The position numbers and the translations under genes were made by a program. A DNA stretch of 64,000 nt from Candidatus Multivoradales bacterium (GTDB taxonomy: Bacteria; Acidobacteriota; Thermoanaerobaculia; Multivoradales; J023). The DNA is taken from NCBI GenBank assembly GCA_965248925.1, contig CBDFLE010000006.1:2272001-2336000 (forward strand). Direction: 5' to 3'. Shown in pieces: positions 3,857-25,648 of this stretch (its first letter is position 1; each line of letters starts with the position of its first letter). The notes beneath the pieces were generated by a model. It saw only the letters and a program-made list of their open reading frames with translations. It did not search any database and had not been told where the DNA came from.

Positions 3857-4672
3857 ATGAGCCCCACCACCGAGACCCTCGCAGTCGACCCCAGCCTGGC
3901 CATCCAACCCCTGCGGATCGCCGACCGCACCTTCACCTCGCGCCTGTTGCTGGGCACCGGCAAATATCCCGACAGCCAGACCATGGTGCGAGCGCTCGAA
4001 GTTTCCGGCACCGAGATCGTCACCGTCGCCCTACGGCGGGTCAATCTCAGTGACCCCGACGGCGAAGCCTTCATCCACCATGTCGACCGCCAGCGCTACC
4101 TCTTCCTGCCCAACACTGCCGGCTGCTACGCCGCTGAGGAAGCCGTGCGCACCGCCCGTCTGGCACGCGAACTCGGCGGCTGGGATTGGGTCAAGCTAGA
4201 AGTGATTGGCGACAAGAAGACCCTCTTCCCCGACAACCGCGAGTTGCTAGCCGCCACCGAAACCCTGGTTGGCGAAGGCTTCACCGTGTTGCCCTACACC
4301 AACGACGACCCCGTCGTCTGTCGCCAGCTCGAAGAGCTAGGCGCCGCCGCGGTCATGCCCCTAGGAGCGCCCATCGGCTCCGGGATGGGCATTCGCAACC
4401 CCGCCAACCTGCGAATCATCATCGAACAAGCTGGAGTACCCGTGATCGTCGATGCTGGCGTCGGCACCGCCAGCGACGCCGCCGTCGCCCTAGAGCTAGG
4501 TGCCGATGGAGTGCTAATGAACACCGGCATTGCCTGTGCCCAAGACCCCGTGCGCATGGCCCACGCCATGAAGCTCGCCGTCGAAGCCGGCTGGCAAGCC
4601 GCCCACGCCGGCCGCATCCAGCAAAACCTCTACGCCATCGCCAGTTCCCCAGTCCAAGGACTCATCGAGTAG
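3857..4672 (+). CDS. thiG: Thiazole synthase
   Basis: [64 protein letters not shown]. Confidence 0.97.
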
Positions 4673-4684
4673 GATGCCCAGGGC

Positions 4685-4713
4685 TTGCAGCCGACCATTT
4701 CATCGGCTACAAT
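4685..4713 (+). promoter_or_regulatory. Sigma70-type promoter of tRNA-Arg
   Basis: TTGCAG-17 nt-TACAAT, ending 27 nt upstream of the tRNA. Confidence 0.7.
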
Positions 4714-4740
4714 CCCGCTCCGCGCCGTCCGGCGCGACAT

Positions 4741-4817
4741 GCACCCGTAGCTCAACTGGATAGAGCGTCTGACTACGGATCAGGAGGTTAGGGGTTCGAC
4801 TCCCTTCGGGTGCACCA
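4741..4817 (+). tRNA. tRNA-Arg (anticodon ACG)
   Basis: GCACCCG...CGGGTGC acceptor stem with encoded ACCA, D-arm GCTC/GAGC, anticodon arm TCTGA-CTACGGA-TCAGG, T-loop GTTCGAC. Confidence 0.97.
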
Positions 4818-4831
4818 TTTAACTCCCTTGA

Positions 4832-4905
4832 AATCAACTAATTAGGCACACCACTCGGCTACTGCTGTGTTCTCTGTTTCTGGAAAGTAACCAGGAAGTA
4901 ACCAG
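4832..4905 (+). promoter_or_regulatory. att-arm region: IHF-consensus site plus tandem 10-bp direct repeat (putative integrase arm sites)
   Basis: AATCAACTAATTA at 4832-4844 matches WATCAANNNNTTR exactly; AAGTAACCAG occurs at 4885-4894 and 4896-4905. Confidence 0.6.
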
Positions 4906-4920
4906 AGCAGATGTGCTCAT

Positions 4921-4955
4921 GTGAGCCACCCTTCGCCTCTCCTGCGCCTTTGTAG
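4921..4955 (+). promoter_or_regulatory. Putative ECF-sigma promoter motif (copy 1)
   Basis: GTGAGCCAC-N12-CTGCGCCTTTGTAG. The same bipartite motif with identical spacing lies at 42907-42941 (minus strand) between the ECF sigma and kinase genes. Confidence 0.55.
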
Positions 4956-4993
4956 AGCGAACTCATCTGAGTTCGCCTGGAAGAACTCGCCCA

Positions 4994-6298
4994 ATGAAGG
5001 GGGGAACGGTGGCGGATCTATGGTGGTACCCGATTGGTTTCGTGGCAGCCCTACTGGGGTATGTCCAGTTGCACAATGCCCGGAGTGGTCGCCAGAAAGC
5101 CGGCTCCCTATTCTGGGCTGGTGGCGCTGCCTACCTCGCCTTCCGGAACTTTTGGCTCTTCGAGTACGCCGATACGGATCGGTTGATCTGGTTTGCTCTG
5201 ATCTTCTGTGCCGCCAGCCCCGTGCTTGGCTATCTGTGGTGGGGGCGTGACGGTGAGATTCGGCGAAGATTCTTCCGCATGCTTCTGTTCTTGGCGCTGT
5301 TGACCGTGGGATTCGTCGGTTGGTCGTTTGTCGTGGAATCACCCTTGGCAGTCCTGGTGTTGGCTCTCTCTACCGCTGTCCTCCCGTTCCTTCCCGCACG
5401 AAAGTTCCGGGGCTGGCTTACTCGACGCCGTCTGGTCGCCAGGGGTCGCGACGAGCAGCGCCAAGCCCATCAGCTCAGTGAAGCCGAGCATCGACAGCAA
5501 GAGATCGAGCTTGCCCAATCTCACCAAGCGCAAGCCGCGACCCAGCGTCAGCTCACGACAAAGGAAAAGCAGGTCGCTGCCCTCAAGCGCAAAGATGCGC
5601 AGCGGCGCCAAAAGAAGGAACTGCGCCGACAAGAGATCTCTGGCCAGATTCAGCAGCTGCGCGAAGCCGAAGTGGAACAAGTGCAGCGTGGCAAACCAGA
5701 TCTCCGCTTCCATGCCGACTACGGTTTCCTGATAGCCGAAGCTTGGCGCGTGCTCCGCGCGCAGATCGCCCGTGGTGACCGTGTGCCCGCGGTCGAGCAC
5801 GACGCCTTCTTTTTCCAGGTCGTTGAGGAGTTGCTCGCAGCCGAAGATTTCGAAGGGCGGTACTTCCATGCCAAAGGTCGGAAAGCGATCACCACCGCCA
5901 ATCGCTATCTCGCCGGGCGTGTTCCGCTGCGGAAGGCGGTACGCCAAATCCAACGTCTGCGCTTGACCCCGGCGCAGCTGGCCCCGGAACCGCTTCAACA
6001 CGGTGTAGGGGCCGAGCTGCTCGAAGTGTGGCTCGTGCCCCACCGCCGCTTGCAGGCGGCGCAATGGGAGGAATTCCAAGACGGGAACCACACCTACCAT
6101 GTGCAGATCATGACCGTCTGGACCCGGAGGGGGAAAGGGAGCGGCCAACCCAATCGCCAGCAGTGGCAAGACCTCTGGGATGAGCAACCGGCGTTGTTCC
6201 TGAAGCCCGTCACCACGTCAACAGCGCAGTCACGGCAGAAAGCATCCCCATGGCGGAAAGTGGTTTCCAGTATCTCGCAGCGCGTCAAAGCCAGATAG
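4994..6298 (+). CDS. Hypothetical membrane protein (about 5 N-terminal TM helices, Gln/Arg-rich coiled coil, C-terminal globular domain)
   Basis: 434-aa ORF with hydrophobic segments in the first 135 aa followed by a Q/R/E/K-rich helix; overlaps the start of the coupling-protein gene. Confidence 0.75.
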   Translation: MKGGTVADLWWYPIGFVAALLGYVQLHNARSGRQKAGSLFWAGGAAYLAFRNFWLFEYADTDRLIWFALIFCAASPVLGYLWWGRDGEIRRRFFRMLLFLALLTVGFVGWSFVVESPLAVLVLALSTAVLPFLPARKFRGWLTRRRLVARGRDEQRQAHQLSEAEHRQQEIELAQSHQAQAATQRQLTTKEKQVAALKRKDAQRRQKKELRRQEISGQIQQLREAEVEQVQRGKPDLRFHADYGFLIAEAWRVLRAQIARGDRVPAVEHDAFFFQVVEELLAAEDFEGRYFHAKGRKAITTANRYLAGRVPLRKAVRQIQRLRLTPAQLAPEPLQHGVGAELLEVWLVPHRRLQAAQWEEFQDGNHTYHVQIMTVWTRRGKGSGQPNRQQWQDLWDEQPALFLKPVTTSTAQSRQKASPWRKVVSSISQRVKAR

Positions 6299-8172
6299 AC
6301 CACCGCGTCCACGCCGGGAATCGGTTCGCTGGCGGACAGGCGGTTTGGCTGAGCGAGAAAGAGCGCGCGGTGCACACCTATGTCTGCGGTGTGTCCGGCT
6401 CCGGCAAGAGCCGTTTTCTCCAAAATCTGCTGTTCCAAGATATTGGGAAAGGGCATCCCGTCGCGCTGATCGACCCGATGGGCGACCTCTACCGCAGCGT
6501 GCTCGAGTTCGTCGCCACCGGTTTGGAACGCGCCGCAGAATGCGGCTTCACCCGCCGTGAGCTGCTGCCGCGCTATCTCTTTCTCGACGCATCTGACGAA
6601 GGAAACTCTCTGCAACTAAACCCGTTCGAGAGTAGCCCGCACGAAAGCAGCGAACAGCAAGTGGACGACCTGATGAAGGCGCTCGAACGTCTGTTCGATG
6701 GAAAGCTCGAAGAACAGCGCCGACTGAGAAATGTGCTGCGCGCCACCTTTATCCTGATCGCTGAACTCAACCGTCTACCCTTGCGGCAGCGCCCACCGCT
6801 CCTGGGCTTCATCGCCGACACCAGCTATCCGCTGACGCTGTTCTCTGCCCCCGACATTCTCAACATGAAGAACAACGAGCGGCAGCTGCTGCTCGATGCC
6901 CTTCCTTCCTCACCTCGTCTGCATTTCCAGCGGCAGTACTGGCAAAATCTGGCGCAGAATCCGCGTGAACAGAGCCAGATCGTGCAATCGAGCTGGAACG
7001 TCCTGCAGTACCTGCTCGCCGATGACCTGGTGCTGCGAGTGTTCGGCACACAGCGCAGCACCTTCGACTTCACGACCCTGCTGCGTGACGGCATCAGCCT
7101 GTTCTGCTTTCTCCCGAAGAACGAGAATCTCGCCGGAGCGCGCTTCCTCGGCAAGTACCTGACGACGAAGCTCCAGCACACCGCGTATCGCCGACCACAG
7201 GCGGAATGGCAGCGGGCGTACGCCCTCTACCTCGACGAATTCCACCACTTCGTTGACCAAACCTTCGCCGACGCCATGACCAATCTGCGGAAATTTGGTC
7301 TGCGGGTGACCAACGCGCACCAGACCCAATCCCAGCCGCCCTTCGACACCCGTGAAGGACAGTCACTGCTGAAAACCATCCGCGCCAACTCCCGCGTGAA
7401 GGTGCTCTTCCGCCTCGATCGCCCCGATGCCGAGCAGCTGAGCAAGGAGCTGTTCCAACTCACGCAGCAACGGGCGAACTTTCAGGCGACGGATCAGACG
7501 CAGGGAAGCTCTGAACAGCAAAGCAGTAGCCTGGCGCATTCGTCCGGCCAAACAACCGGCAGCGGCACGAGTTCGAGCCAGTCAAGTGCCCACAACACGG
7601 GTTCGTCCAGCTCGATGCGCGAAGATTCCGGCGGAGACCTACTGGGTGGCCAGGGTACGTCGGCAGGAAACAGCCTGAGCAGAAATCGCGGCCATTCTGA
7701 ACACTTCGGGTCTTCGGCGAGTGAACAGCGGACGCTCGGACAGTCGAAGAGCACTTCAGAATCTCGCACCACTCGCACGATCTACCACACCCTCGAAGGC
7801 GAGCGCGAGCTGCTGATCAACCAGCTTCAACACTTGCCCGATCGGCAGTGCTACGTCTCCACGGCGTCACTCCAGGCCGAGTTGGTCGAAACGCCCTACG
7901 TACCCGACAGCCACTACGCCTACGTCGCGGAGAATTTGCCGGAGCGGATCTTGGAGTTGCAGCGGGAGCGGCTGGCGGAGGGCCAGCGCGAGGAGTTTCA
8001 GAAGCCAGAAGTGAGGATGCTGCCGGCGGCGCAGGTGGTGGAGATCGAAGTGGCAGCGGCGCCAGAGGTGGTCGAGGTGGCTGCGATTGAAACAGTCGCA
8101 GAGGTTGAAGAGACGGTGGTGGAGCTGGCAGTGCTAGAGGTGCAGGACGAGGATGATCCGTTCTTGGACTAG
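6250..8172 (+). CDS. Type IV coupling protein-like ATPase (TraD/TraG/HerA-FtsK superfamily)
   Basis: HTYVCGVSGSGKS (Walker A), LIDPMGDL, LNPF, LYLDEFHHF (Walker B), LRKFGL..AHQ, and a Ser/Gly/Thr-rich insert near the C-terminus. Confidence 0.88.
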   Translation: MAESGFQYLAARQSQIDHRVHAGNRFAGGQAVWLSEKERAVHTYVCGVSGSGKSRFLQNLLFQDIGKGHPVALIDPMGDLYRSVLEFVATGLERAAECGFTRRELLPRYLFLDASDEGNSLQLNPFESSPHESSEQQVDDLMKALERLFDGKLEEQRRLRNVLRATFILIAELNRLPLRQRPPLLGFIADTSYPLTLFSAPDILNMKNNERQLLLDALPSSPRLHFQRQYWQNLAQNPREQSQIVQSSWNVLQYLLADDLVLRVFGTQRSTFDFTTLLRDGISLFCFLPKNENLAGARFLGKYLTTKLQHTAYRRPQAEWQRAYALYLDEFHHFVDQTFADAMTNLRKFGLRVTNAHQTQSQPPFDTREGQSLLKTIRANSRVKVLFRLDRPDAEQLSKELFQLTQQRANFQATDQTQGSSEQQSSSLAHSSGQTTGSGTSSSQSSAHNTGSSSSMREDSGGDLLGGQGTSAGNSLSRNRGHSEHFGSSASEQRTLGQSKSTSESRTTRTIYHTLEGERELLINQLQHLPDRQCYVSTASLQAELVETPYVPDSHYAYVAENLPERILELQRERLAEGQREEFQKPEVRMLPAAQVVEIEVAAAPEVVEVAAIETVAEVEETVVELAVLEVQDEDDPFLD

Positions 8173-8981
8173 CCGGTTTCTTCTCCACCGCCCTTCTCCG
8201 CAATCGGGCTGTAGGCCCAACCCAATCGATATTTGCTTTCGCAATTCGAACATTTGATTACTTGTCCAATCCGGATCAAGCGGTTCTGGATGTACATTGC
8301 CTCTCGGCAATTTTGACAAACGACCCTCGTTTCCGGAATCTTGACGATCCATTCTTCTCCATCCTCTGTACGCTCCGCTTCGTGCTCAGCGCCACAGTCT
8401 GGATCAAGACAGATAGCCTTTCCCGACTCTTGCAATCCGTCATCGTTACAAACCACCTTCTGTCCGCAGGCGAGGCAGTCAAATTCTACATTTATGGCGA
8501 GACCCGCATCCATTGAGCTGGCTACTACAGGCCCAAGTTCCTCTAACATTCTCGAAAGTGCAGCGCGCATCTTTTCTAATCTGACCGGGTACGGTAGCCT
8601 GGGCGTAACGAACGGCTGATCTTCGTGAAGGTAGCTTCCGAGCTTGTTGTAGTGCTTCTGGACCCACTTGTACTTCACGGTGCGATGGGTTCCCATATGC
8701 TGCCATTTTTCGCCAGGCACCCCTAGCTCTGTTTCTCGCGCCATACGGAGGGTGAAGTCCTCGTCAGCGTTTGGCTCCAGTTGCAAAAGCGCCTTAAGTG
8801 CCTGGGGCGGTTGCCACTTTTTCTTTACCGACGCGGGAAGGCGGCTGGCATAGGTCTTGAGTTTGGAGTAGACGATGTCTTCCAGGCACAACCTCAGCTC
8901 CAAGGCGGCGTAGATCAATCGGTCGTCGTCGCCCGACTCAAGATGTTCTTTGGCTCTCCGATAATGCTCTCTCTTCGACAC
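8169..8981 (-). CDS. Hypothetical protein with four Cys-pair (Zn-ribbon) motifs
   Basis: GTG start with a GGAGGAG RBS; YAALELRLCLE helix, YNKLGSYLH; CLAC, CLDPDC, CQNC, CSNC; more AT-rich than its neighbours. Confidence 0.8.
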   Translation of the reverse strand: MSKREHYRRAKEHLESGDDDRLIYAALELRLCLEDIVYSKLKTYASRLPASVKKKWQPPQALKALLQLEPNADEDFTLRMARETELGVPGEKWQHMGTHRTVKYKWVQKHYNKLGSYLHEDQPFVTPRLPYPVRLEKMRAALSRMLEELGPVVASSMDAGLAINVEFDCLACGQKVVCNDDGLQESGKAICLDPDCGAEHEAERTEDGEEWIVKIPETRVVCQNCREAMYIQNRLIRIGQVIKCSNCESKYRLGWAYSPIAEKGGGEETG

Positions 8982-8996
8982 TGTTCTCCTCCCAAG

Positions 8997-9914
8997 TCAA
9001 GGTCTCCGTGCTCGCGCCAAACCCCTCCCCACCCCAACCCGATTCCTCCAGATCCCCTCGAACAAGACGTTCTGCGCCTTGAACGCTTCCACATCCGTCA
9101 TGCTCAGCAGCTCAAACCCCGGCTGCTCAGCCAACGACTCCGCCAGATTCTTCACCCGCCGCGGAGTCGTCGTCACCAGCAGCACCCGGAAGTCCCGCAC
9201 CTCGCCGTAGCGCTGCCAGAGCCGGTTTTCGGGAACAGTCGGATCTGACGCTTTCAGATAGTGGTGGTACGCCAACAGCTTCGTCGCCAACTGTTGCGAA
9301 CTCTCCGATCCGCGATCCGCTTCAAGGAAGTAGAGCCTCGCCCGCTTTCCCTGCCGCAGAGCAAAGACCAGATCGGGGCGAATGCGCAGCGGAACCGACT
9401 CCCCAGCCACGACCACATCTTCCTGCGTCACGAAGCGCTCGACGTGTTTGCGCTTCGCCGGATTGCCCACCGCATGCGTCGTCAGGAACGGCACACCGAG
9501 AGGTGCCAGATCGGAAAGCTCGAAGCTGCTGCGCCGGATCGACTCCACAAACCGCACTGCCCCCTCGCTGACCAGCAGGGCATGTTGAAGCTGGCGCTCC
9601 GTTTCCTCCCCGCGTGGCTGGTACAGCCGCCTCTGGCGAATACCAAACCGTTCGCGCAGCTCCGGCAATGCTTGCTCGGTTAGGAAGTAGATGCGCTCGC
9701 GCGTCTCCACCATCCGATCATCCGCCAGATAGCCAGCTTGGTAGAGCCGACGCAGCCGTTTGCGCACGTTGTGCAACGACGAGAGGCGTCCCGTGCCCGG
9801 CTGGAAATAGCCCAGCCGCCGCAGCTGCCCGAGCGTCAACACGCGCAGCATCCAGAGCCAGCTAAACAGCTCGACATCGGTGGCGGTCAGCACTAATCGG
9901 GAAACACGAAGCAC
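8997..9914 (-). CDS. Replication-relaxation family protein (Replic_Relax, MOBC-like relaxase)
   Basis: N-terminal wHTH (VRKRLRRLYQAGYL, IYFLTEQA), QHALLVSE, IRPDLVF, YFLEADRGSE, KLLAY, FRVLLVTTTPRR: PD-(D/E)XK-type pattern typical of PF13814. Confidence 0.88.
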   Translation of the reverse strand: MLRVSRLVLTATDVELFSWLWMLRVLTLGQLRRLGYFQPGTGRLSSLHNVRKRLRRLYQAGYLADDRMVETRERIYFLTEQALPELRERFGIRQRRLYQPRGEETERQLQHALLVSEGAVRFVESIRRSSFELSDLAPLGVPFLTTHAVGNPAKRKHVERFVTQEDVVVAGESVPLRIRPDLVFALRQGKRARLYFLEADRGSESSQQLATKLLAYHHYLKASDPTVPENRLWQRYGEVRDFRVLLVTTTPRRVKNLAESLAEQPGFELLSMTDVEAFKAQNVLFEGIWRNRVGVGRGLARARRP

Positions 9915-9938
9915 GCCCGGATTCTACCGCGAGACGCC

Positions 9939-10175
9939 TCACCATTCCGGTCCCGGATCCGATGTTGACGACCGCAGCTGCGCCTCGATCCACGCTTCCA
10001 GATCCTCCGGCCGGTAGCGAATCGCCCGCGCCGAGATCTTCACGAACTGCGGTCCGCGACCCTGATAGCGCCACGCCTGCAAGGCGCGCGGCGTCAGGCT
10101 GAGCAGCTTCGCCGCTTGCACCTCTGTCAGGAGCGGTTGGCGCTGCGCGTGCGTAGTTTTCTCCATCGCGATCAT
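9939..10175 (-). CDS. AlpA/excisionase-like helix-turn-helix protein (HTH_17)
   Basis: LLTEVQAAKLLSLTPRALQAWRYQGRGPQFVKISARAIRYRPEDLEAWI; GGAGG 6 nt before the ATG at 10175. Confidence 0.9.
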   Translation of the reverse strand: MIAMEKTTHAQRQPLLTEVQAAKLLSLTPRALQAWRYQGRGPQFVKISARAIRYRPEDLEAWIEAQLRSSTSDPGPEW

Positions 10176-10543
10176 CGTGTGCCTCCATGTTTCTTCACGA
10201 GTCTGAAACGCCCCTACTGGGCTTCGCTGTACGTCCGTTCGGCCATATGAAAACGCTAGCAAGCCCCTGAAATCCTGCCAATTACCCTTCTGCCGTACCC
10301 GCTGCTTGGGTACCCCCACCGGGTGGGCTCAGCGGGTAGGCTTCGTTTTCTTAAACTACTGAAATAGAACGGATTCGACATTCTCACTTTCTCTACTCGC
10401 AGATCCCGCTCTGCGCACCAGAAGAGGGAAACACTCTTCCGACCGGCTGTCGGGAACGCTGGTGGCTGGTGGGGTGGCGGTGGGGATCGGGATGGAAGAT
10501 GAAGAAACGGGAGCCCAAGCCAATGGACTCCCGTGGTCACCGG

Positions 10544-10723
10544 TCATTCCGGCAGTGAGCCATTCTCCGTCAGGAAGACTTCGCCAAGCTTGGAGCCGCA
10601 ACTCAGGCAGCGATAGATGGTCCAGCGACGCTCTGGATGATTGAGCAAACGGCTGTCTTCAATGCAGAGGTCGTGCTGCTCGATCTCGCACATCGGACAA
10701 GTGAAGGATTTGAAGTTCTTCAT
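10544..10723 (-). CDS. 59-aa Zn-ribbon protein
   Basis: MKNFKSFTCPMC...YRCLSC; ATG preceded by a pyrimidine tract like neighbouring genes. Confidence 0.6.
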   Translation of the reverse strand: MKNFKSFTCPMCEIEQHDLCIEDSRLLNHPERRWTIYRCLSCGSKLGEVFLTENGSLPE

Positions 10724-10961
10724 GGGAAGAGGGGTTAAAGGATGAAAACGCCCTCGCGCTACCGGTGAGGAGCGCCGGGTCCAGGAGGAGTCGCGCCGCA
10801 GGCGTGAAGGCTCCTGGAGGCGGCGCGAACGACGCCGGTACGCTGAGAGGAGTTTTCGACGGCAACTCAGGGTCGGAGGGTGGCGGTGGTGGATGAGGAA
10901 CTTGCAGCAGCGAGCATGAAAAGAGGGAGCCGCCCAGCCAGGCTGGAAGACTCCCGAGTAC

Positions 10962-11597
10962 TCACGCCAATCCCAGACGCTTGCGCGCAATCGCCGCGTA
11001 CTCCGGATCCAGCTCGATGCCGTAGAAATGTCGCCCCAGGCGCTGCGCCGCCTCACCAGTTGTCCCCGAACCCGCGAACGGATCAAGCACCATGTCGCCC
11101 GGCCTGGAAAATGCGCCGATCAGCGGCTCGATCGCACTGAGCGGTTTCTGCGTCGGATGCAGTCTGTTGCCCGTGTAACTCCACGGCAGTACATCATTGA
11201 GTAGCACCGCCGGTTGCTCTGGCTGACCTTTAGCCAGCAGATACGCCGACTCGTGCAAGCGCCGGACATACCGTTGAGACGACGCATACGATTTCGCCCA
11301 GACCAAGTGCCCGACCGGTCGCAGACCGGACTGCCGCCAAGCATGGAGAAACGTGTCCGCCTGCTGCCAACCATAAAACGAGATGCAGTAGCTGTTCGCC
11401 TTCAGCACCCGCGAGATTTCTTGAAAGGCCGGCTCCAGCCAATCGGCTTGTCGGTCGTTGCAAATCTTCCGCCCATCACGCGAGCGGTAGTCCACCAAGT
11501 ACGGCGGATCGGTGACCACCAGATCCACCTTGGCGTCCGGTACGCCTTTGAGAACTTCGATGCAGTCGCCGGTGATGATTTTGGAATGTGTCTTCAT
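10962..11597 (-). CDS. Orphan DNA methyltransferase (N6-adenine/N4-cytosine, beta class; plasmid leading-region type)
   Basis: GDCIEVL, VDLVVTDPPY (motif IV), HPTQKP, VLDPFAGSGTT (motif I), GIELD; no restriction enzyme nearby. Confidence 0.93.
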   Translation of the reverse strand: MKTHSKIITGDCIEVLKGVPDAKVDLVVTDPPYLVDYRSRDGRKICNDRQADWLEPAFQEISRVLKANSYCISFYGWQQADTFLHAWRQSGLRPVGHLVWAKSYASSQRYVRRLHESAYLLAKGQPEQPAVLLNDVLPWSYTGNRLHPTQKPLSAIEPLIGAFSRPGDMVLDPFAGSGTTGEAAQRLGRHFYGIELDPEYAAIARKRLGLA

Positions 11598-11904
11598 AAG
11601 AAGTGAGAAAAAAAAGAGCAACGGAGCCAGCCTTCGACTGACCAGCTCCGCCGCCAATGCTAGCCACAGCAGTCTGGATTGGCACGCTTGCCGTCCAGCT
11701 GATCAAGGTGACAGCTACATAGGAAACCAGCGCAATTCGGGCATTGATACTCAGTAGTGGAGTTCCCGCCATAGGAGCCAGCAGTCGTGATCCAGGCATC
11801 ATCTTGTTCCTTCTGGCAGTTCGGGCAGATGTAGGAGTTGGAGTTCATGAGAAGTGAGAAAAAAAAGAGCAGCGGAGCCAGTATCGAGTACCAACTCCGC
11901 CGCT
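11598..11904 (-). repeat. Two ~58-bp direct repeats (about 11598-11655 and 11849-11904), each a hairpin plus T8 tract immediately 5' of an ATG
   Basis: Both read GCGGCGGAG(C/T)TGGT...CTGGCTCCG(T/C)TGCTCTTTTTTTTCTCACTTCT(T/C)ATG on the minus strand. Confidence 0.9.
11660..11848 (-). CDS. 62-aa Cys-rich (double CPNC) small protein
   Basis: YICPNC...YQCPNC...CSCH...CCG, located exactly between the two repeats. Confidence 0.7.
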   Translation of the reverse strand: MNSNSYICPNCQKEQDDAWITTAGSYGGNSTTEYQCPNCAGFLCSCHLDQLDGKRANPDCCG

Positions 11905-11914
11905 GCCGATGATG

Positions 11915-12118
11915 TTAGACCGCGTCAGCTGCCGACCGACCGGTCGAAGGTGCAGCCTTCGGCTCCATCAGGACGAACCGGCCATCAGGCGGCAGAACGT
12001 CCAAAACGACATTCAAGCCGTTGCCGTTCTTGGTCTTCCAAGCGGCGCCGATCTTCGTGAAGAAACCGTCCTTGACGTGGAAGGCTTCATAGACCGGAGT
12101 GTTCTTTGCAGAACTCAT
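11915..12118 (-). CDS. Small putative ssDNA-binding-like protein
   Basis: FTKIGAAWKTKNGNGLNVVLDVLPPDGRFVLMEP resembles a small family common on mobile elements (KIGAAW...G.N..LD..P.DG); function inferred. Confidence 0.7.
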   Translation of the reverse strand: MSSAKNTPVYEAFHVKDGFFTKIGAAWKTKNGNGLNVVLDVLPPDGRFVLMEPKAAPSTGRSAADAV

Positions 12119-12159
12119 GAGAAAATGGGTAAAAGAATAAAAAACGCCGACCGAGTGAA

Positions 12160-12320
12160 TCGATCGACACCTTGAGCACAGCAGACAGAGGCTCCGCGCC
12201 GCAAGGAGGAGTCGCAGGGAAGGCACAGGAATAGTCCGCCGCAGGCGGAATCTGCTGTGCCGACCGAGAAGCTCCTTGCGGCGTGGAGATGTCTGCTAAA
12301 ATGAGAGGTGTTGAGCGATC
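12160..12320 (+). promoter_or_regulatory. Long imperfect stem-loop, Frpo/ssi-like ssDNA promoter candidate
   Basis: Nested inverted repeats TCGACACC/GGTGTTGA, AGCAGACA/TGTCTGCT, CTCCGCGCCGCAAGGAG/CTCCTTGCGGCGTGGAG, GGCACAG/CTGTGCC, TCCGCC/GGCGGA. G:T pairs fall on the plus strand. Confidence 0.65.
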
Positions 12321-12332
12321 CCTCCATTCAGA

Positions 12333-12361
12333 TTGACCGATCCTTATCGAGAAAGTACAAT
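12333..12361 (+). promoter_or_regulatory. Sigma70-type promoter for the DUF1640-like gene
   Basis: TTGACC-17 nt-TACAAT. Confidence 0.7.
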
Positions 12362-12387
12362 ATATCTACTTTCATTACTCCTGCCTC

Positions 12388-12630
12388 ATGGCTCATTCAG
12401 CCACCTTCGACACCCTCGCCTACGCCAAGAAAATGAAAGCTGCCGGCTTCACCGAGCAGCAAGCGGAAGGTCAAGCCGCAGCCCTCGCTGAAGTCATTGA
12501 CGAACGGATGGCAACCAAGCAAGATTTGCAGAATCTGGAAGAGCGGCTGATCCTCAGACTCACTATCCGTACCGGCAGCATGCTTGCTGCCACCATCGCG
12601 ATTCTTGCTACCCTGATCAAATTGCTTTAG
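12388..12630 (+). CDS. DUF1640/CCDC90-like small coiled-coil membrane protein
   Basis: FDTLAYAKKMKAAGFTEQQAE...ATKQDL and a C-terminal TM helix. Confidence 0.85.
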   Translation: MAHSATFDTLAYAKKMKAAGFTEQQAEGQAAALAEVIDERMATKQDLQNLEERLILRLTIRTGSMLAATIAILATLIKLL

Positions 12631-12701
12631 TTTCGCTCCCCAAAACCCACTTGCTGGATTCTGAGAGAAGTGTACAATGAGACTATTCTCACCTGAATCC
12701 C

Positions 12702-12845
12702 ATGGCCTTAACCGTCCAGAAACTCCGCAAGATCACCGGCAGCAAGACCCTTGAAGATTTCAAGCGCGACTACAAGAAGCGCACTGGACAAGAGCTGAAG
12801 AAGGTCCCGAAGCTCTCCCTGAAGACCAAGCTTGTTCTCAAGTAA
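12702..12845 (+). CDS. 47-aa Lys-rich protein (not in the ORF track)
   Basis: MALTVQKLRKITGSKTLEDFKRDYKKRTGQELKKVPKLSLKTKLVLK; preceded by TTGCTG-16 nt-TACAAT at 12651-12678. Confidence 0.6.
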   Translation: MALTVQKLRKITGSKTLEDFKRDYKKRTGQELKKVPKLSLKTKLVLK

Positions 12846-12895
12846 CTATCGAGATCCTCATCCGCCAGCGCCGGCCTTTCGTCCAGCTACCCGTC

Positions 12896-13237
12896 TTGAC
12901 CAAGACTGGGCGTTTCCGAAAAATGCGATTTCTCGTCGATACTGGCTTCACTGGAAGCTGTGTCTTCATTATTCGCAAAGGCGGAACCGTGCCCGATGTC
13001 GACTTGTCGGAGATCGAGGAGCTGCCAGCAGAAAGTTGGATCGAGGTCGCCAGCGGCGAGCAGGAACGGACCTTCTCAGCACTGACCGCCTTCAAGCTCG
13101 AAGCTGACACCCCATTGCCGGTGCTGTTGATGGAAGCCGAGGACTACGATGATCCGATTGTGGGCATGCAGTTCCTGGAAGAGCAGCAAAAGACCCTGCA
13201 CCTCGACTTTGGCGCGCGGTCGTTCTACTTGAATTGA
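12896..13237 (+). CDS. Single-domain clan AA (retropepsin-like) aspartic protease
   Basis: FLVDTGFTG catalytic motif and PIVGMQFL...LHLDF. The true start may lie near 12848 because the frame is open upstream. Confidence 0.8.
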   Translation: MTKTGRFRKMRFLVDTGFTGSCVFIIRKGGTVPDVDLSEIEELPAESWIEVASGEQERTFSALTAFKLEADTPLPVLLMEAEDYDDPIVGMQFLEEQQKTLHLDFGARSFYLN

Positions 13238-13366
13238 TCCGATCGAGATCAGCCACACCGCAGCGCTGAGCACAACACTGCATTGTGCGAAGTTGTAACG
13301 GAGTGGAAACTCCTCGCACAATGTCCGGTTGTGCCGGCGCGGTATTGACTGCGATCTGATTGGATT
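13236..13366. other. ~130-nt long imperfect hairpin
   Basis: ATCCGATC/GATTGGAT, AGATC/GATCT, GCGCTG/CGGCGC, GCACAAC/GTTGTGC, CATTGTGCGA/TCGCACAATG, with an inner GGAGT/ACTCC. Confidence 0.75.
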
Positions 13367-13506
13367 CTTGGGAATGGAGAAACCGACCAACCCCCACCCG
13401 AAGGGTCGGGATCACCAATACGACCAGAATGCGTCCCGCGCACTTCTCGTACTTTTCAATCGGAAGTTCGAACTGATCGCGAGATGTTCTTCGTGTCTGC
13501 TGCCCT

Positions 13507-14808
13507 CTATTGAGGGAAACGGACCTTCCTCGCAGTGGGGGCGATTTCGATCTGGTGAGGAAGATAGCTGCCTTCGACCCAGGCGATGACCATCCCATCT
13601 AACGTCCTGCGAAGCTTCTCCGTTGCCTTGAGGAACCCAGCAAGCGAGTGAATCTCAGTCTCACCCTGCCACTCCTGATCGCCGCCTCCATCGTGGCGAG
13701 CTAGAGGTCGCCAAACCAGCAGAGGAACGCGCAGCGCGCCCAAATAGTTGGCAGCTTGCTGGGGCGTCAGCGAGCTGGAGTCCTCGACGCGTCCCGATCG
13801 GATTAAGACCACGGCGCGGGCTCGCCCGGAACCAGCGGCTACGAAACCCGCCATCGCAACGGCATCCGCAATACGTTGCGATCCCTGCGGAAAATCCCGA
13901 TCAGGAAAAAAGCTATTCGCAACTAGTTCCAAGAGGGAGCGTGAGCCGTTGTCAGAAATGTCTTCTGACACCGGGAGAGCAGAGATCGCCGTCAGGTCTG
14001 GTGCTTCTTCCGCAAACACGACCCGTAGCTGATCGCCAGGACGCAAGCCGCGCAGATCTCGTCCCGAGAGGTCTCCCTTTCGCCGCACATGCATAAGCAA
14101 GTAGAGGTCCATCAAAGATTCAAGATTCCACTCTGACCCCTCGCGTACCACCACGATCTCGGCGTACCCGTGATCGACTGCCACCGTGCGTAACGGGCGC
14201 TTCTGAGCAGTGAGGACTTGCTGGAGATGCTCCAGCTTGACGCTACGGCGTCGACCCCAGGCTAGAGGGACGCTTGTGAGACCGCTCTGTGCGACATCTT
14301 GGAAACAGCAACCGAGCACCATCGTTGCTTGCGCTCGCAGCGTATCGGTGAAGACAACCTCTGCACGAAGAAGATTAGGCGCAGTCGGATCGAGCTTCGG
14401 AAGCGCAACGATCCCTTCCTGATCAACACTGAGGGCTAGGTCATCGAGCGAGACCGTAGCAGCTCGTTCCTTCCGGCCAGCCCGCTCTTCCCAGACGAGA
14501 CGAACAGTGTCCGGCGTTCCCTGCTCCCGAACGAAGCGAGCCGCGACTTCGGCGCCGGGGATATTAACGAGCTGACGCGCCTCCGCGACCGCGTCGCCAT
14601 TTGGCAATCGCCCGACCGCGCGGAGTTCGTGAGGCAGGAGAGCATTCCCCAGATCGCAGACGATCGCCCACGGCTCGTCATGGTCGACCCCGCAACTGGT
14701 ACCGTCGAGGAACAGCTCGACGCTCACCACCTCGGCACTCGTGGATGCCAGTCTCACTTCCTGGGGGCCAGTCATCAGGCCGAGGAAGAGCGTCAGGAAT
14801 TCGAGCAT
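13507..14808 (-). CDS. Hypothetical exported protein (Ig-like N-terminus, VWA-like C-terminus)
   Basis: 433-aa ORF; hydrophobic N-terminus; RIADAVA..G..AA...RARAVVLI pattern resembling a degenerate VWA domain. Confidence 0.7.
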   Translation of the reverse strand: MLEFLTLFLGLMTGPQEVRLASTSAEVVSVELFLDGTSCGVDHDEPWAIVCDLGNALLPHELRAVGRLPNGDAVAEARQLVNIPGAEVAARFVREQGTPDTVRLVWEERAGRKERAATVSLDDLALSVDQEGIVALPKLDPTAPNLLRAEVVFTDTLRAQATMVLGCCFQDVAQSGLTSVPLAWGRRRSVKLEHLQQVLTAQKRPLRTVAVDHGYAEIVVVREGSEWNLESLMDLYLLMHVRRKGDLSGRDLRGLRPGDQLRVVFAEEAPDLTAISALPVSEDISDNGSRSLLELVANSFFPDRDFPQGSQRIADAVAMAGFVAAGSGRARAVVLIRSGRVEDSSSLTPQQAANYLGALRVPLLVWRPLARHDGGGDQEWQGETEIHSLAGFLKATEKLRRTLDGMVIAWVEGSYLPHQIEIAPTARKVRFPQ

Positions 14809-14855
14809 CTCAACTCTCTGGTTTCAGGTGACCCGGCTCGGAACGAACGCATTCT

Positions 14856-15617
14856 CTAGTCGGCGCGATAATCGATCTGGAATGAGAGCAGAGTAAGAGA
14901 CCCCACGCTCGCAACGGCCTTTTCGTCATAGCGGAACTTCGCATAGGTGTTCAACGTCACATAGGCAAAGATCGGCGGACCAGAAGTCTCGCGAACCACC
15001 GGGCGTGCGACCGAGCCGTCCTCACGGACATCAACATAGAACGACACCGATCCACCAATTCCGGAAATTACCATTGCCGACATGAGGCGAGTTGCTTCCT
15101 TACCCTGCTGCTCCATGTTCCATCGAACCTGAGCCTGGGCTACAGCCGGAGTCGAGTTCACGACTTTTTTTGTGCCGAGATCAGAGGAATCGAGCACCTC
15201 AGTCAGTAAACGGGCATCTTGGCCCTCCAAGACTCGCGCTGCCAATCTGGGGAATGTGGAGAGTTTCAGGTCTCTGACTCCAGGCGCCAGGTTCTGAGCA
15301 ACATGCCACATCCAGAGTGCCCTGTCCTCTTCTCCAGTACCGGCTAGTGCGAGCGCTTTTAGTGCTGCGAGATGCCCTAGAGATCCGGCATCCATAATAC
15401 GTTCAGCGCTCGACTCAATAAGCGCGAGTTCAAGACGATGAATTGCGCGGGACGCCTTCTTCCAATTAGCTGCTTGGAGAAAAGTCTCTATCCTCTCCAT
15501 CTTTGCAGACGTCAACTGCGCGGCTGTCAATGCTGGTGCCCAAAAGACCAGGAGCGCTAAGCTGAATCTGACAAGTGGCGTTCTCACGGAACCAGCAGAA
15601 CCGACAATCCTACTCAT
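14856..15617 (-). CDS. Exported protein with a C-terminal TonB-C-like domain
   Basis: Signal peptide; C-terminal GSVSFYVDVREDGSVARPVVRE...YAKFRY resembles TonB_C. Confidence 0.6.
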   Translation of the reverse strand: MSRIVGSAGSVRTPLVRFSLALLVFWAPALTAAQLTSAKMERIETFLQAANWKKASRAIHRLELALIESSAERIMDAGSLGHLAALKALALAGTGEEDRALWMWHVAQNLAPGVRDLKLSTFPRLAARVLEGQDARLLTEVLDSSDLGTKKVVNSTPAVAQAQVRWNMEQQGKEATRLMSAMVISGIGGSVSFYVDVREDGSVARPVVRETSGPPIFAYVTLNTYAKFRYDEKAVASVGSLTLLSFQIDYRAD

Positions 15618-15713
15618 AGAATATAGAGCCCCAGGGAGAGATTAGTCTCGAAAATAATGCGCGGTGCGACGCCAGGACGACGGACTGGATTGATCGCTAC
15701 GAGCTAACGATCG

Positions 15714-15929
15714 CTAGGAGCAAGTTGTCTCGGTGAATTGCACTGCGGTACCGTTTGAAAGAAAGTAGAGATATGTGATTTGGTGGCAGACGATCTGCCC
15801 TCCCCCCGAGAAGACGATATCGTCAACGATGATGTAGTCTAGGCACTCGCCGGATGGCGCACATTGCCCGAAGCTGATTGCGGGGAGGAACACGAGCATG
15901 AGAGCTGTGAGAATTACTGCTAGTTTCAT
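15714..15929 (-). CDS. 71-aa secreted peptide with 4 Cys
   Basis: GGAGG RBS; MKLAVILTALMLVFLPAISFG signal peptide; mature part QCAPSGEC...VC...TCS. Confidence 0.75.
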   Translation of the reverse strand: MKLAVILTALMLVFLPAISFGQCAPSGECLDYIIVDDIVFSGGGQIVCHQITYLYFLSNGTAVQFTETTCS

Positions 15930-16290
15930 AGGAATAGCCTCCAAAGTAGAAATACGTAAACAGAGTACCCAAAGTACCTCTTGTCAGCACCGCACTAGAC
16001 ACTCTATCATTATAGACAAGGGGCTGGCGATGACCTTGTTCTCTTCTCACTAGGCATCTGTCGATGCACCAGCATCACTCTCCCAGAGGAATTTGCGGCA
16101 CCGCGCCGCTAGTTTCCGGTCATGGTTTTGGACCAGAGACCTCGCCGCGCAAGTGAGTTCTTCTGACGCTGGACACCTGGAGTTTTTCATCAAGAGAAAA
16201 AGAAGAGACGGCCGGCCCTATCCGCATCGAATGGCGACCATCCGGAGCCCAGATTCCCTGTTTCCAAGCGATGTCGTCTCTCGCCAGTAG

Positions 16291-16701
16291 CTAAGATCCT
16301 AATTCGCGAATCAAGCGCTGCCGTATTCGCCGCATGCGCGATCTGTCACCTCGAAAGCGCGCAATCCGCGAGCCGAGCACCGTGATCAGCCCGGCGTATT
16401 CGATCCCGCGATCTCGCTCCGGATCGAGCAGGTCATGCGCACGTTTCCAGGTCCGACCGTCCGCCGAGAGCAGCAGATCCACCTCTCGGTTAAGTTGCAA
16501 CGCTGAGAACGCCCAATGGAAGGACCCGATCCTGATCTGCGCATCGCGCGCTAGTTCTTGCAGGTCGGCCAGCAACGGTCCCGTCAGCGGATCGCGGCCG
16601 ATCAGATACCACGCCAGCCGGCCGAGTTCTGGACTCGCCTCTTCCGCTAATAGCAGCAAGTTGGCGACATCATCGTGCTTGGGCGTGAGCGCCGGGGTCA
16701 C
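16291..16701 (-). CDS. Hypothetical protein
   Basis: 136-aa ORF whose GTG overlaps the stop of the upstream ORF (GTGA). Confidence 0.65.
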   Translation of the reverse strand: MTPALTPKHDDVANLLLLAEEASPELGRLAWYLIGRDPLTGPLLADLQELARDAQIRIGSFHWAFSALQLNREVDLLLSADGRTWKRAHDLLDPERDRGIEYAGLITVLGSRIARFRGDRSRMRRIRQRLIRELGS

Positions 16702-23300: not shown

Positions 23301-23600
23301 GTGCGCTCAGGAAAGATTTCCGCAACAGGGTGGGGTACTAGAAAAAGACCTTGGGTAGTAGCCCCTCAGCCCACGAAGACCCTCTTAGAATTCTTACGGG
23401 ATGGGCGTCCCTTTTCTCCAAGAACTTCGATCTTTCAGCGGGGTCAGATAATCCCGCGCTCAATCTCGGTTCAAGGCAGGTGGACCGACATAAACAGCCG
23501 TTTCCTGTTGCGATTGCTAGATATGGTGCCGTCCTGGCGTGTTTCTATTCTCAGAAAGCTCGAGGTTGTGCTGTCGCGTTCACGGAGTCGAAGTGTTTAG
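20352..23600 (+). CDS. 1082-aa hypothetical protein with HExxH zinc-metallopeptidase motif and repeated G-x-x-[DE] ferredoxin-like segments
   Basis: LAHEVGHEL, downstream FIESSSDF (possible third ligand); N-terminal SGTFDV, SFGWNEF, IGKRDI; lower GC than host genes. Confidence 0.85.
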   Translation: MLRLLPSSTLTEYRQGRIMLKGFQSTNISLHAGFLNVIFFETNPSKILEIAKAAKSRVEDLRSHRPHDYQFSWLPEAELPICEEEDEGAAFYFPRVFITSGTFDVAAIFLSPTMEMAPWMQVDALRVSGQDINVALLPKKSPLLGSGVRDFNRDFWESYRQEPSRNLEPARAFTGIIKLKINPATWPTLHPNADQQTGQLTHQLADLWQAVDRWRKTTAVAGTEHPEVALAISFGWNEFLIVAHADSPGKLFRLSLAIRQCSTSAPCLADEPKNLVHLLSTTITAVGHDYRIREHCIEELDSRSKARHSISAKEILNLALALPRNHQEKKTFEETGDIPGTFYQIGCHTYPGHEKSLFSLLRKLEDTLKKQNMLTSEDSSCVDIGKRDIWTPRIVIGENYFSPLEATYLVELLHVWIRNGGAGPLGKRTQRGKSNGEAPIRAAFDFYTRLACPRRVNEQNLNLRPVPLNHVTRMPQDYLTPPLVTMEFAQTREDNGFVARLKFSMRILQIPYYLSEQILNLVNTFFWANDRDVIWDESIELIPVVVGLADNVNALRNWWNLGKPTVPLYPWESVSEEQRNELIGDEVGRRLAGNIDPNIPELLHAFRAYFYSRHLSSYLTDEMPDMNIRFRGSVHQLLNISNLILDAMSDRIFGPRASMAIIGDSASPEIETPCDIIVVKLNTNTFTMPIMLESLAHEVGHELILELIRDSVDSGWRRHRWLKGKFSRTRQKNFKRLVSVFTQLHHDVFQTMLVPPTSDNDCARVFIESSSDFVEYQLLAFASVEDWAPSFFLRMVLAGSPSSLGARPEDIGSIVPHLDDKLILSAILRSVHVLLAHRMSTKDWSSLEEFRDRMIVADLAEFRDLLIERCVLGPGVSPAHLLRAESWQHFVRSEVFGSSPLFFSEEGFELACKFYKALAGHARPHPNSIRKDTPERFLSSIQDSFRDLRGSFPQGQEEGDGVYGLLLPSLHIRHWLSAEELRDVRSGKISATGWGTRKRPWVVAPQPTKTLLEFLRDGRPFSPRTSIFQRGQIIPRSISVQGRWTDINSRFLLRLLDMVPSWRVSILRKLEVVLSRSRSRSV

Positions 23601-24615
23601 GGCTCAGGAAGCTGCCTTCCAGCTCCTTGAAGAATCGTTCCATGACGGGTCAGTCTGCCTGGTGTTGGGCGCGGGAGCAAGTGTTGACATCGGTCTTCCT
23701 CAATGGAAAGGTCTCGTGGAAAAGGTCGCGGGACAGTTAGGCGCCGAAACGAAGAACCTCGATTCGGCTGGCTATGCTAGAGTTCTTGGACAACTAGCAC
23801 GCTCGTCTGAGTTTTGGCGGGCCCTCAGTACCGCTCTTTACAGCGGACAGTGCTCAAGAGACTGGGTTAGCCGATCCTTGTCGGGAAGCTATGCGCTGAA
23901 GCGTTTGGCAATATTGGCGATACTAGGCGCGATTGGCCACCCTGATCGATCCTTCCACGCAATGACCTACAACCTGGACTGTCTCCTTGAGGAACAGATA
24001 GCCCATCTTGGCCACAGGGCGGTAGCATCGACTGCAAACGAGGAAGAGGTTTGGGAACCGACAGACTCAACAGAGGCGCTAGTTACTTGCTGCCCCAGGC
24101 ATTCTAGGGGTGAAGTGGCTACAGTCAGGATCTTTCACCCTCATGGACTGTTGTTAAGGGAGGGATCGAGGGCAATCGATCCAATACTGACTGCTGAGCA
24201 ATACGAGAGCCTCGCCAATGTTCCGTTGGGACAAATTAATCTTACGCAGATGCGACTGTTTATCCAGAGAACCTGCATCTTTTATGGTTTTTCTATGACA
24301 GACCCAAACGTCAACAGACTACAGCGGCTCGTTCACAACTTGGTGCGGTCTGGAACGGAACAGGAATCGGCCGGCAACGATTGCTTCTCTCACATTGCAC
24401 TGATCACTGACGAATCCGGCTCTGTTGTAGCAAAACGGGCCGCTCGCGGAGACGCCAATACGATTGCTGGCTTGGAACAAATCGACCTGTATGAGATGGG
24501 AGTTCTGAGACTTGGGCATATGGGCTACCGACAGCACCGGCTCTTTCTGGCGGAGCTGTTGCGGCGTGTAGGCAAAGGATTTCAGTGGCCGGGCAAGCTG
24601 AGTCCCTACTCCTAG
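23593..24615 (+). CDS. SIR2-like (SIR2_2) domain protein, putative NADase effector
   Basis: LVLGAGASVDIGLPQWKGL, TYNLDCLLE, IFHPHG, CIFYGFSMTDPNV. GTG at 23593 lies just upstream of the TAG (23598-23600) of the large gene, so the ORFs overlap by 8 nt. Confidence 0.9.
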   Translation: MFRAQEAAFQLLEESFHDGSVCLVLGAGASVDIGLPQWKGLVEKVAGQLGAETKNLDSAGYARVLGQLARSSEFWRALSTALYSGQCSRDWVSRSLSGSYALKRLAILAILGAIGHPDRSFHAMTYNLDCLLEEQIAHLGHRAVASTANEEEVWEPTDSTEALVTCCPRHSRGEVATVRIFHPHGLLLREGSRAIDPILTAEQYESLANVPLGQINLTQMRLFIQRTCIFYGFSMTDPNVNRLQRLVHNLVRSGTEQESAGNDCFSHIALITDESGSVVAKRAARGDANTIAGLEQIDLYEMGVLRLGHMGYRQHRLFLAELLRRVGKGFQWPGKLSPYS

Positions 24616-25294: not shown

Positions 25295-25648
25295 TGCCTA
25301 TTCCGACGAAACTGACCAGCCATTCCGATCGAAACCGACCACTTGTCGGAGCGAAGCGACGCTGGCGCTCTCCTCAGTTGTAAGTGTCCACTTTCGCTGT
25401 AGCTGGAGCCCTCCTTCCGGCTCTTCTTCTTGGTTGATTGTATTCAAATAACCCGTCGTCGGGGCTGTGCGTAGCTGTGGGAAACGCGGGTGGGTGGCCG
25501 GGGGGCGTTTTCCAAGCGGCTGTGGGAATCGCAGAGCGATTTCCTCAGCCGCGGCAGCTTCCACAGTCCATCTTGGGTCGGGTCCGGATCGGGCCGCAGG
25601 CCCGCTGATGGGTCAGGATCGGCGATCGCTTCAGCATGCTCTTGGATC

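Follow-up and report, generated by a model that had tools for sequence, protein, structure and literature searches.

The locus considered here raises the question of what a large imperfect stem-loop is doing directly upstream of a run of small genes in what appears to be an integrated mobile island of an acidobacterium, Candidatus Multivoradales. The DNA analyzed, hereafter the window, is a stretch of 64,000 nucleotides (nt) corresponding to G000:C6:2272001-2336000 in a genome of 7.98 Mb. To the right of a tRNA gene, the island encodes, in order, a 434-amino-acid (aa) protein, a coupling protein, a 270-aa protein of unknown family (minus strand), a relaxase, and a helix-turn-helix (HTH) protein of the HTH_17 family, followed by a non-coding gap and the genes g4, methylase, g2, and g1; g1, g2, the methylase, g4, HTH_17, and the relaxase are all on the minus strand. 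The original prediction, made from the letters alone, placed a ~160-nt stem-loop at 12160-12320, upstream of four minus-strand genes pointing towards a non-coding gap before the HTH/relaxase operon, and interpreted the region as a conjugative leading region with a promoter active on single-stranded DNA (ssDNA). The open reading frames (ORFs) and a gap of 368 nt (10176-10543) between g4 and the HTH_17/relaxase operon exist, and the stem-loop is real at 12159-12319 (hairpin A); a second, related hairpin at 10744-10857 (hairpin B) had been missed. On balance, we favor reading hairpins A and B as ssDNA promoters of the Frpo kind, or as priming sites, within the leading region of a compact mobilizable island of MOBC type, and they probably represent a new sequence class of such promoters that serve as priming sites too.

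Fold of the two hairpins

Folded as ssDNA, the plus strand of hairpin A reached -52.7 kcal/mol against a shuffle mean of -29.7 kcal/mol (z-score -6.8, with none of 200 shuffles as good), and the minus strand reached -45.2 kcal/mol (z -5.1). The plus strand, the template for the four minus-strand genes, is ahead by 7.5 kcal/mol, its better fold having been part of the original prediction, and this advantage does not come from composition because shuffles of either strand fold with almost the same mean energy. Hairpin B, a minimal member of the same family located directly upstream of g4, between the methylase and g4, gave -45.1 kcal/mol on the plus strand (z -5.6) and -33.4 kcal/mol on the minus strand (z -3.6); it aligned at 73% identity across 148 positions with a hairpin on a metagenome contig (L093:6794-6937), for which the template strand gave -32.6 and the other strand -25.5 kcal/mol. 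Hairpins A and B have a common core, in which a helix closed by a near-invariant stretch of seven pairs is accompanied by a small internal loop of purines and by a shared box close to the base. At gathering thresholds, Rfam contained no family for the hairpins, and only the tRNA was found.

Relatives and covariation

More distant homologs of g1, which lie in many integrative elements, were recruited by tBLASTn from genome contigs (93 loci) and metagenome contigs (133 loci), and 80 were kept from each. The hairpin family comprised six copies in four islands: A-type copies in the window, in a paralogous island of the same genome (L010/L171), in a metagenome-assembled genome (MAG) of Acidobacteria that holds the nearest relative island (L011), and on a metagenome contig (L093), and B-type copies in the window and L093. 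The hairpin therefore stands upstream of a g1 homolog in three further islands, with covariation, an outcome that had been set beforehand as a test of the original prediction. Gene order is the same in all four islands, running from the hairpin through g1, a methylase or ArdC, and HTH_17 to Replic_Relax, with ArdC in the place of the methylase in L093.

Across the four A-type copies, 92.9% of 225 cells were standard-paired versus 82.3% in shuffles, and both-sided changes occurred in 21 of 61 pairs versus 8.1 in shuffles; neither value was reached by any of 500 shuffles, and control structures slid by one to three columns had only two to six pairs changed on both sides. The length of the apex varies by ~100 nt within the family, and the seven-pair stretch and several loop letters are near invariant, with a single mispair in one copy; because these positions hardly vary, they suggest that the hairpin may be recognized in a sequence-specific manner. 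Profiles of the arms, run with nhmmer against the 8-Mb genome and the 160 loci, recovered the four A-type copies only, not even hairpin B, and a pattern for the core motif matched the organism's own genome alone (two sites) among 401 genomes sampled from the class, with no match in the 400 others. Two matches of the core pattern in viral contigs were rejected as chance, being A+T-rich and without the fold or neighboring relatives. Readings of the hairpins as repetitive extragenic palindromes or miniature inverted-repeat transposable elements were rejected because the family is not dispersed, and an integron attC-like reading was rejected as well, as only in the window does one arm end match the core-site pattern, and no integrase is present.

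Strand preference

The template strand folded better in five of the six copies, by 5.9-10.2 kcal/mol, whereas shuffled sequences differed by +2.2 to -4.3 kcal/mol. Consensus pairs included 13 G:T versus three A:C, a count biased by the structure having been predicted on that strand. The operon supplied an internal control in the form of four small terminator-like hairpins on the minus strand, all of which folded better on the RNA-sense strand: after g4 (10507-10534; -10.1 versus -8.9 kcal/mol on the plus strand), after g2 and 10 nt before the methylase start, with a T8 run (11617-11655; -10.3 versus -7.1), after g1, also with a T8 run (11868-11904; -12.1 versus -9.8), and, for a small hairpin with its own T run, in the leader that links hairpin A to the start of g1 (12141-12173; -5.1 versus -3.2). 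In the stem of this leader hairpin, letters change in L011 and L093, yet pairing is kept.

Plasmid F served as an external control. Published work describes ssDNA promoters upstream of ssb, klcA, and a methylase homolog in F and pESBL. Strongly folding windows just upstream of ssb, the antirestriction gene, and the locus-14033 gene of F showed a template-strand advantage of 6-10 kcal/mol; F was strand-neutral before its methylase, and beside the annotated Hok toxin gene the coding strand was favored. A fold advantage of the template strand is seen both in the window and in plasmid F.

Promoter-like boxes

An ssDNA promoter demands that the gene-distal arm read -35 and then -10 from apex to base. 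The distal arms carry promoter-like boxes in this sense, as needed for transcription towards the genes, with TTGnnn in five of six copies and TAnnnT in five of six. In hairpin A, the boxes (12276-12302, plus strand) are TTGCGG and TAAAAT, the latter preceded by TG, with a 15-nt spacer, and the -10-like box lies mostly inside an 8-nt internal loop. The other A-type copies have TTGACC, 23 nt, TACACT (L010), TTGAGG, 16 nt, TCTCCT (L011), and TTGACT, 21 nt, TACCCT (L093); the B-type copies have TGGAGG, 18 nt, TACGCT in the window (10815-10844, plus strand) and TTGAGG, 18 nt, TATCCT in L093. The -10-like box falls within an internal loop in all four A-type folds, with no such box on the complement of the proximal arm, and the -35-like box of the A-type copies lies in a helix of hardly varying pairs. 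No sigma-70-like promoter was predicted on the minus strand from 9900 to 12700. The organism nevertheless appears to use promoters of this type because a plus-strand gene at 12388 carries TTGACC, a 17-nt spacer, and TACAAT.

Probable leading-region context and proposed mechanism

The third gene of the operon (10962-11597, minus strand) encodes an orphan N6/N4 DNA methyltransferase (N6_N4_Mtase, E 9e-36) of the PRK13699 family (NCBIfam NF010253, 268.2 bits versus a cut-off of 244), known from IncF and IncI leading regions, as the earlier assignment of an orphan methylase of leading-region type implied; relatives occur on at least 5000 plasmid records, and 3814 were typed conjugative among the matches listed. 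Within the gap, a conserved non-coding block (10238-10345) contains repeated TACCC/GGGTA units and a 10-bp inverted repeat, with many invariant columns in the four-island alignment, and is a candidate origin of transfer (oriT) or a relaxosome/operator site. The order of leading genes, candidate oriT, and relaxase matches that of plasmid F, where the leading region carries a related methylase and all genes run towards oriT and into traM, in mirror image of the island; the transferred strand would be the template of these genes only if the plus strand is the one transferred. Conservation, the template-strand fold, the boxes, the methylase family, the repeat block, and the F-like order therefore support the original leading-region prediction in part, whereas its view of g1 as a protein resembling single-strand-binding protein (SSB) found no support, as described below.

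We infer a nick site, a transferred strand, recognition by polymerase, and ssDNA-specific activity as follows. The relaxase would nick the plus strand within or near the conserved block at 10238-10345, and the plus strand would enter the recipient 5′ to 3′, bringing in turn g4, hairpin B, the methylase, g2, g1, and hairpin A, with the relaxase and coupling genes last. On the incoming strand, each hairpin would form a pseudo-duplex whose distal arm presents the -35-like and -10-like boxes to host RNA polymerase. The polymerase could then use the same strand as template towards the nick, yielding g4 mRNA from hairpin B and g1, g2, and methylase mRNA from hairpin A before a complement exists. Once the DNA is double-stranded, the hairpins could not form, and expression would stop, no sigma-70-like promoter being predicted there.

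Hairpins upstream of other g1-like genes

The 160 g1-like loci yielded 145 with 300 nt of upstream sequence and 111 after removal of redundancy. For the upstream 300 nt, the template strand gave the better fold at 93 of these non-redundant loci and the coding strand at 16, with a mean difference of -5.8 kcal/mol; 324 control stretches from the same loci split 197 to 126, with a mean of -1.0 kcal/mol. Wobble counts at the g1-like loci were 540 versus 369. Because these loci are related to each other, p-values computed from them overstate the effect. Downstream sequence of 5.2 kb was available at 65 loci, and in the first 28, which were examined for co-oriented genes, N6/N4 methylases were found at eight loci, other DNA methylases at two, ArdC at three, MobA_MobL relaxases at three, and Replic_Relax at one. 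A covarying motif upstream of DUF736 genes is described in a preprint (10.64898/2026.10.21.760802, cluster 378,112), where it is interpreted as non-coding RNA (ncRNA).

These observations raise the possibility, which we put forward tentatively, that template-strand hairpins before small DUF736-like genes are a widespread, unrecognized class of ssDNA promoters. They would stand at the head of establishment modules in integrative elements of Acidobacteria, Planctomycetes, and Alphaproteobacteria whose relaxases are unrelated, and one or more of them would at present be entering catalogues as an ncRNA motif. In this island, the hairpins and terminators would together form a switch between the single- and double-stranded states. 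Under such a switch, transcription on the incoming single strand would start inside the hairpin, and the RNA terminators might not work in that state, since the transcript would remain on its template; the double-stranded form would lack a promoter, and any read-through would be halted at every gene.

Small genes of the operon

The first gene, g1 (11915-12118, minus strand), encodes a 67-aa small beta protein with a sub-threshold likeness to DUF736 (PF05284; E 0.2, 12.0 bits, under the Pfam gathering cut-off of 22.1), and DUF736 was the best or sole match, at E 0.07-0.2, in five of six g1-like proteins tested. Its AlphaFold2 (AF2) model has four strands and a pLDDT of 77. The label 'ssDNA-binding-like' that had been given to g1 found no support, since no SSB family matched up to E 5 and the model matched nothing in the PDB (best Z 2.5, best Foldseek E 0.36). 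The g1 family comprised six proteins among 5.8 billion, and among 401 genomes sampled from the phylum, g1 matched only its own genome (two copies).

The other two small genes encode miniproteins, namely g2 (11660-11848, minus strand; 62 aa, with two CPNC motifs) and g4 (10544-10723, minus strand; 59 aa, zinc-ribbon-like with two Cys pairs, and no family in Pfam, NCBIfam, or PHROG). Protein g2 is 71% identical to a paralog in L171 and had no homolog in a word-index search; g4 and g2 show a weak likeness (29% identity across 51 aa, pairwise E 1e-5), and a g2/g4 profile searched against 1.84 billion representatives gave 16 matches, none informative. Both are near orphans. Because they lie behind the hairpins, they are candidates for early establishment factors, the evidence going no further; nothing bearing on the anti-defense role first proposed for these Cys-rich miniproteins was found. 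Neither SSB nor PsiB was found among the leading-region-type genes of the island. Behind each small gene stands a terminator-like hairpin with a T run, the next start codon lying ~10-25 nt on, and no Shine-Dalgarno motif was seen in the pyrimidine-rich leaders before those start codons. A 54-nt sequence that occurs twice in direct orientation, at 11577-11630 and at 11828-11881, covers two of the terminator junctions.

Transfer genes and boundaries of the island

The tRNA gene (4741-4814, plus strand; Rfam tRNA, 64.9 bits) forms the flank of the island on the housekeeping side, with the TsaD and dNK genes to its left. Next to it, the 434-aa protein (4994-6298, plus strand) has no match in Pfam, NCBIfam, PHROG, or PDB; related proteins found by tBLASTn in both L171 and L011 show that this unknown family lies beside the coupling protein in related islands too. 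The coupling protein (6250-8172, plus strand) is VirD4/TraD-like and of the type IV kind (T4SS-DNA_transf and TrwB_AAD_bind), with all TraD-type NCBIfam matches under the cut-off. Beyond the 270-aa protein, which separates the two, the relaxase (8997-9914, minus strand) belongs to Replic_Relax (PF13814; E 2.2e-15, 57.7 bits versus a cut-off of 25.3) and is a candidate for the MOBC type: the MobC profile of CONJscan is PF13814, and streptococcal mobilizable elements with PF13814 also encode a VirD4 coupling protein (PMC5357655), while a D-E-E metal motif and an essential tyrosine are given as catalytic features of MOBC relaxases (PMC6736028). In L171 (G000:C6:494000-513000, ~4680-8890), the relaxase gene is split into two pieces ~3.3 kb apart (residues 7-227 and 232-301), which looks like an insertion, and in L093 an ECF sigma factor gene (7927-8505) lies between the HTH and relaxase genes. 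The relaxase operon of the window is headed by the small AlpA/excisionase-like DNA-binding protein of the HTH_17 family (9939-10175, minus strand; Pfam E 4.7e-10), with identities of 75-79% across three related islands. The island looks mobilizable rather than self-transmissible because no mating-pore gene was seen among the large ORFs of the window.

Upstream of hairpin A, a strong sigma-70-like promoter (12333-12361; TTGACC, 17 nt, TACAAT, 10 of 12 matches) and an 80-aa gene (12388-12630) with a weak CCDC90-like match and a match to phrog_17872 occupy 12333-12630 on the plus strand and point away from the operon. Further out, blastn and alignment revealed a double palindrome of ~80 nt (13268-13345; GCACAA...TTGTGC, twice), which may be an operator or an element end. 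It recurs in the related islands (L171:11596-11665, L011:7595-7686, and L093:4924-4950), where it abuts the hairpin in all three; as inferred from the alignment, only in the window island do ~930 extra bases (~12320-13250) part it from hairpin A. A direct repeat of the tRNA 3′ end that would mark the far end of the island was not found within the window; an 11-nt inverted match to that end (13395-13405, to 4802-4812) is at chance level (E 1.2). Contigs from four sequencing runs of one sample contained no excision joint, with 4000-16615 spanned by a single contig in two of the four runs and broken only at the tRNA in the other two. Farther along, a SIR2_2 protein (23539-24615), a 218-aa fragment of a second coupling protein (24659-25315), and an IS21-type pair (IstB, 25649-26647; transposase, 26407-27981) look like the remains of another mobile element.

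Weighing the interpretations

Several observations count against hairpins A and B being ssDNA promoters of a transferred strand. The L011 copy is strand-neutral and lacks a TAnnnT box, and window hairpin B lacks the TTG and has its -10-like box paired in the predicted fold; the spacers (15, 16, 18, 18, 21, and 23 nt) fall outside the usual 16-18 nt in three copies, and the two longest shorten only if predicted bulges of 4 and 7 nt are discounted. No A+T-rich UP element was found in the hairpins, hairpin A had no blastn match among 72,556 plasmids, including F and ColIb-type plasmids, and Rfam searched at E up to 5 gave only chance-level rows for 10100-12450. At the g1-like loci, composition accounts for about -2.7 kcal/mol of the mean difference of -5.8 kcal/mol, as estimated from 40 of the 111 with five shuffles each, and among the 47 hairpins with at least 25 pairs, the asymmetry in promoter score was modest, with the distal arm better in 29, the ordinary upstream sense better in 14, and four ties. 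Terminator-like hairpins between all the genes are left unexplained by an ssDNA-promoter model alone. With regard to transfer, MOBC relaxases are nuclease-like and their DNA processing is described as poorly understood (PMC6736028), and since the large ORFs of the window include no mating-pore genes, transfer would depend on a helper.

The terminators lend themselves to the main rival, in which the hairpins function at the RNA level, within the 5′ leader of minus-sense transcripts that start at an ordinary double-stranded promoter further upstream, perhaps in the double palindrome, and serve either in put-like or conAn-like processive antitermination past the inter-gene terminators or as an element of stability or translation. 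The operon contains four terminator-like hairpins, of which one immediately follows hairpin A, and this layout calls for antitermination, which in its processive form is known in conjugation operons (PMC8191782, PMC10325885); in addition, the conserved palindromic block adjoins the hairpin in three islands, the minus-sense folds are still good (z -5.1 for A and -3.6 for B), and the covarying motif before DUF736 genes is taken as ncRNA in the preprint (10.64898/2026.10.21.760802). The strand test disfavors an RNA leader, however: wobbles favor the opposite strand in five of six copies, whereas the true terminators of the operon favor the RNA sense. Moreover, ~930 bases with an opposed gene and promoter lie between palindrome and hairpin in the window, no minus-strand sigma-70-like promoter is predicted, and there is no Rfam match, so that an RNA leader appears unlikely to us. 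A DNA fold on the transferred strand that makes no mRNA, either a single-strand origin (sso/ssi) priming the complement or a roadblock delaying conversion like ssp2 of F, draws on the same evidence of fold, strand, and conservation as the ssDNA promoters; Frpo-type sites also yield primers and ssp2 stalls the replisome (bioRxiv 10.64898/2026.01.09.698686), ICEBs1 carries an sso (PMC4595007), and a short primer RNA could end at the small hairpin and T run that immediately follow hairpin A. Yet A, B, and the unrelated hairpins of the 111 other loci directly precede a start codon with a conserved leader, which priming does not need, and the two functions coexist in known cases, making this a narrower version of the ssDNA-promoter interpretation rather than a true alternative; on its own, we rate it as distinctly unlikely.

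The large hairpin might instead be the oriT of the MOBC-type relaxase, with the gap block merely the operator of the HTH/relaxase operon, and the hairpin family does accompany the relaxase family in four of four islands. In pAD1, whose relaxase TraX founds MOBC, oriT2 is reportedly a large inverted repeat of ~140 bp beside short direct repeats. Two copies per island occur in the window and L093, however, and unrelated hairpins hold the same place before g1-like genes in MobA_MobL elements, which indicates that the position follows the gene rather than the relaxase; the short-repeat block beside the relaxase operon is the more usual place for an oriT, and if hairpin A were nicked, the methylase and small genes would either enter last or lie on the non-template strand. 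An oriT within the hairpin is accordingly improbable. Still less credible, and indeed very improbable, is that the hairpins are long palindromic protein sites on double-stranded DNA, or that they encode a plus-sense antisense RNA. Sequence-invariant stretches in stems and loops would suit a protein site, but the compensatory changes, the tolerated G:T pairs, and an apex varying by ~100 nt suit a folded strand, not an operator; a plus-sense RNA would have the same G:U advantage as the template strand, but neither hairpin has a predicted plus-strand promoter before it or a plus-strand T run behind it.

Relation to known systems and significance

As putative ssDNA promoters or priming sites, hairpins A and B invite comparison with the Frpo/ssi/ssp elements of IncF and IncI1 plasmids (classes 1-3, PMC12672017), which are likewise large imperfect stem-loops directly before leading-region operons, occur as several hairpins per region, carry -35/-10-like boxes in the stem, and precede genes co-oriented towards oriT, one operon having the same orphan methylase family. 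The homolog in that operon, M.EcoGIX of pESBL, belongs to one of six ssDNA-promoter operons whose starts were mapped by 5′ rapid amplification of cDNA ends (PMC12672017). The window hairpins differ in having no sequence likeness to these elements, in being G+C-rich, and in their variable box spacing and lack of an UP element, although the known classes 1-3 are themselves unrelated to one another in sequence (PMC12672017). They also differ in setting, since the Frpo/ssi elements belong to MOBF/MOBP plasmids, whereas the window hairpins lie in an integrated, apparently mobilizable island with a MOBC-type relaxase.

Other systems share single features. The single-strand origins of rolling-circle plasmids and ICEBs1 are strand-specific folds of ssDNA that recruit host enzymes after transfer (PMC4595007), but they serve to prime DNA synthesis and have no link to a start codon, whereas the window hairpins precede start codons. 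Reg576 of p576 provides transient anti-restriction expression after entry through repeated operator motifs (PMC6294495), and the palindrome at 13268-13345 could be such an operator; Reg576, however, uses ordinary double-stranded promoters and no hairpin, while here the palindrome is ~930 bases off and no promoter is predicted. The cluster 378,112 motif (10.64898/2026.10.21.760802) is a structured, covarying element directly before DUF736-type genes, as here, and although it is interpreted as ncRNA, the strand test in the island argues for the DNA template strand, the two being compared by description only.

We know of no ssDNA promoters demonstrated experimentally outside the IncF and IncI1 enterobacterial plasmids, those proposed elsewhere being predictions. 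If the interpretation favored here is true, a chromosomal mobilizable island in a distant phylum would use zygotic expression from the incoming strand, which would then be a general strategy of transferred DNA rather than a specialty of plasmids. The same signature precedes g1-like genes at >100 loci and offers a cheap sequence test, namely a template-strand fold advantage with the terminators of the operon as internal control. Such a test could locate leading regions and the polarity of oriT where relaxases are poorly understood, and in this island the signature marks g1, g2, and g4 as possible first-expressed establishment factors worth testing.

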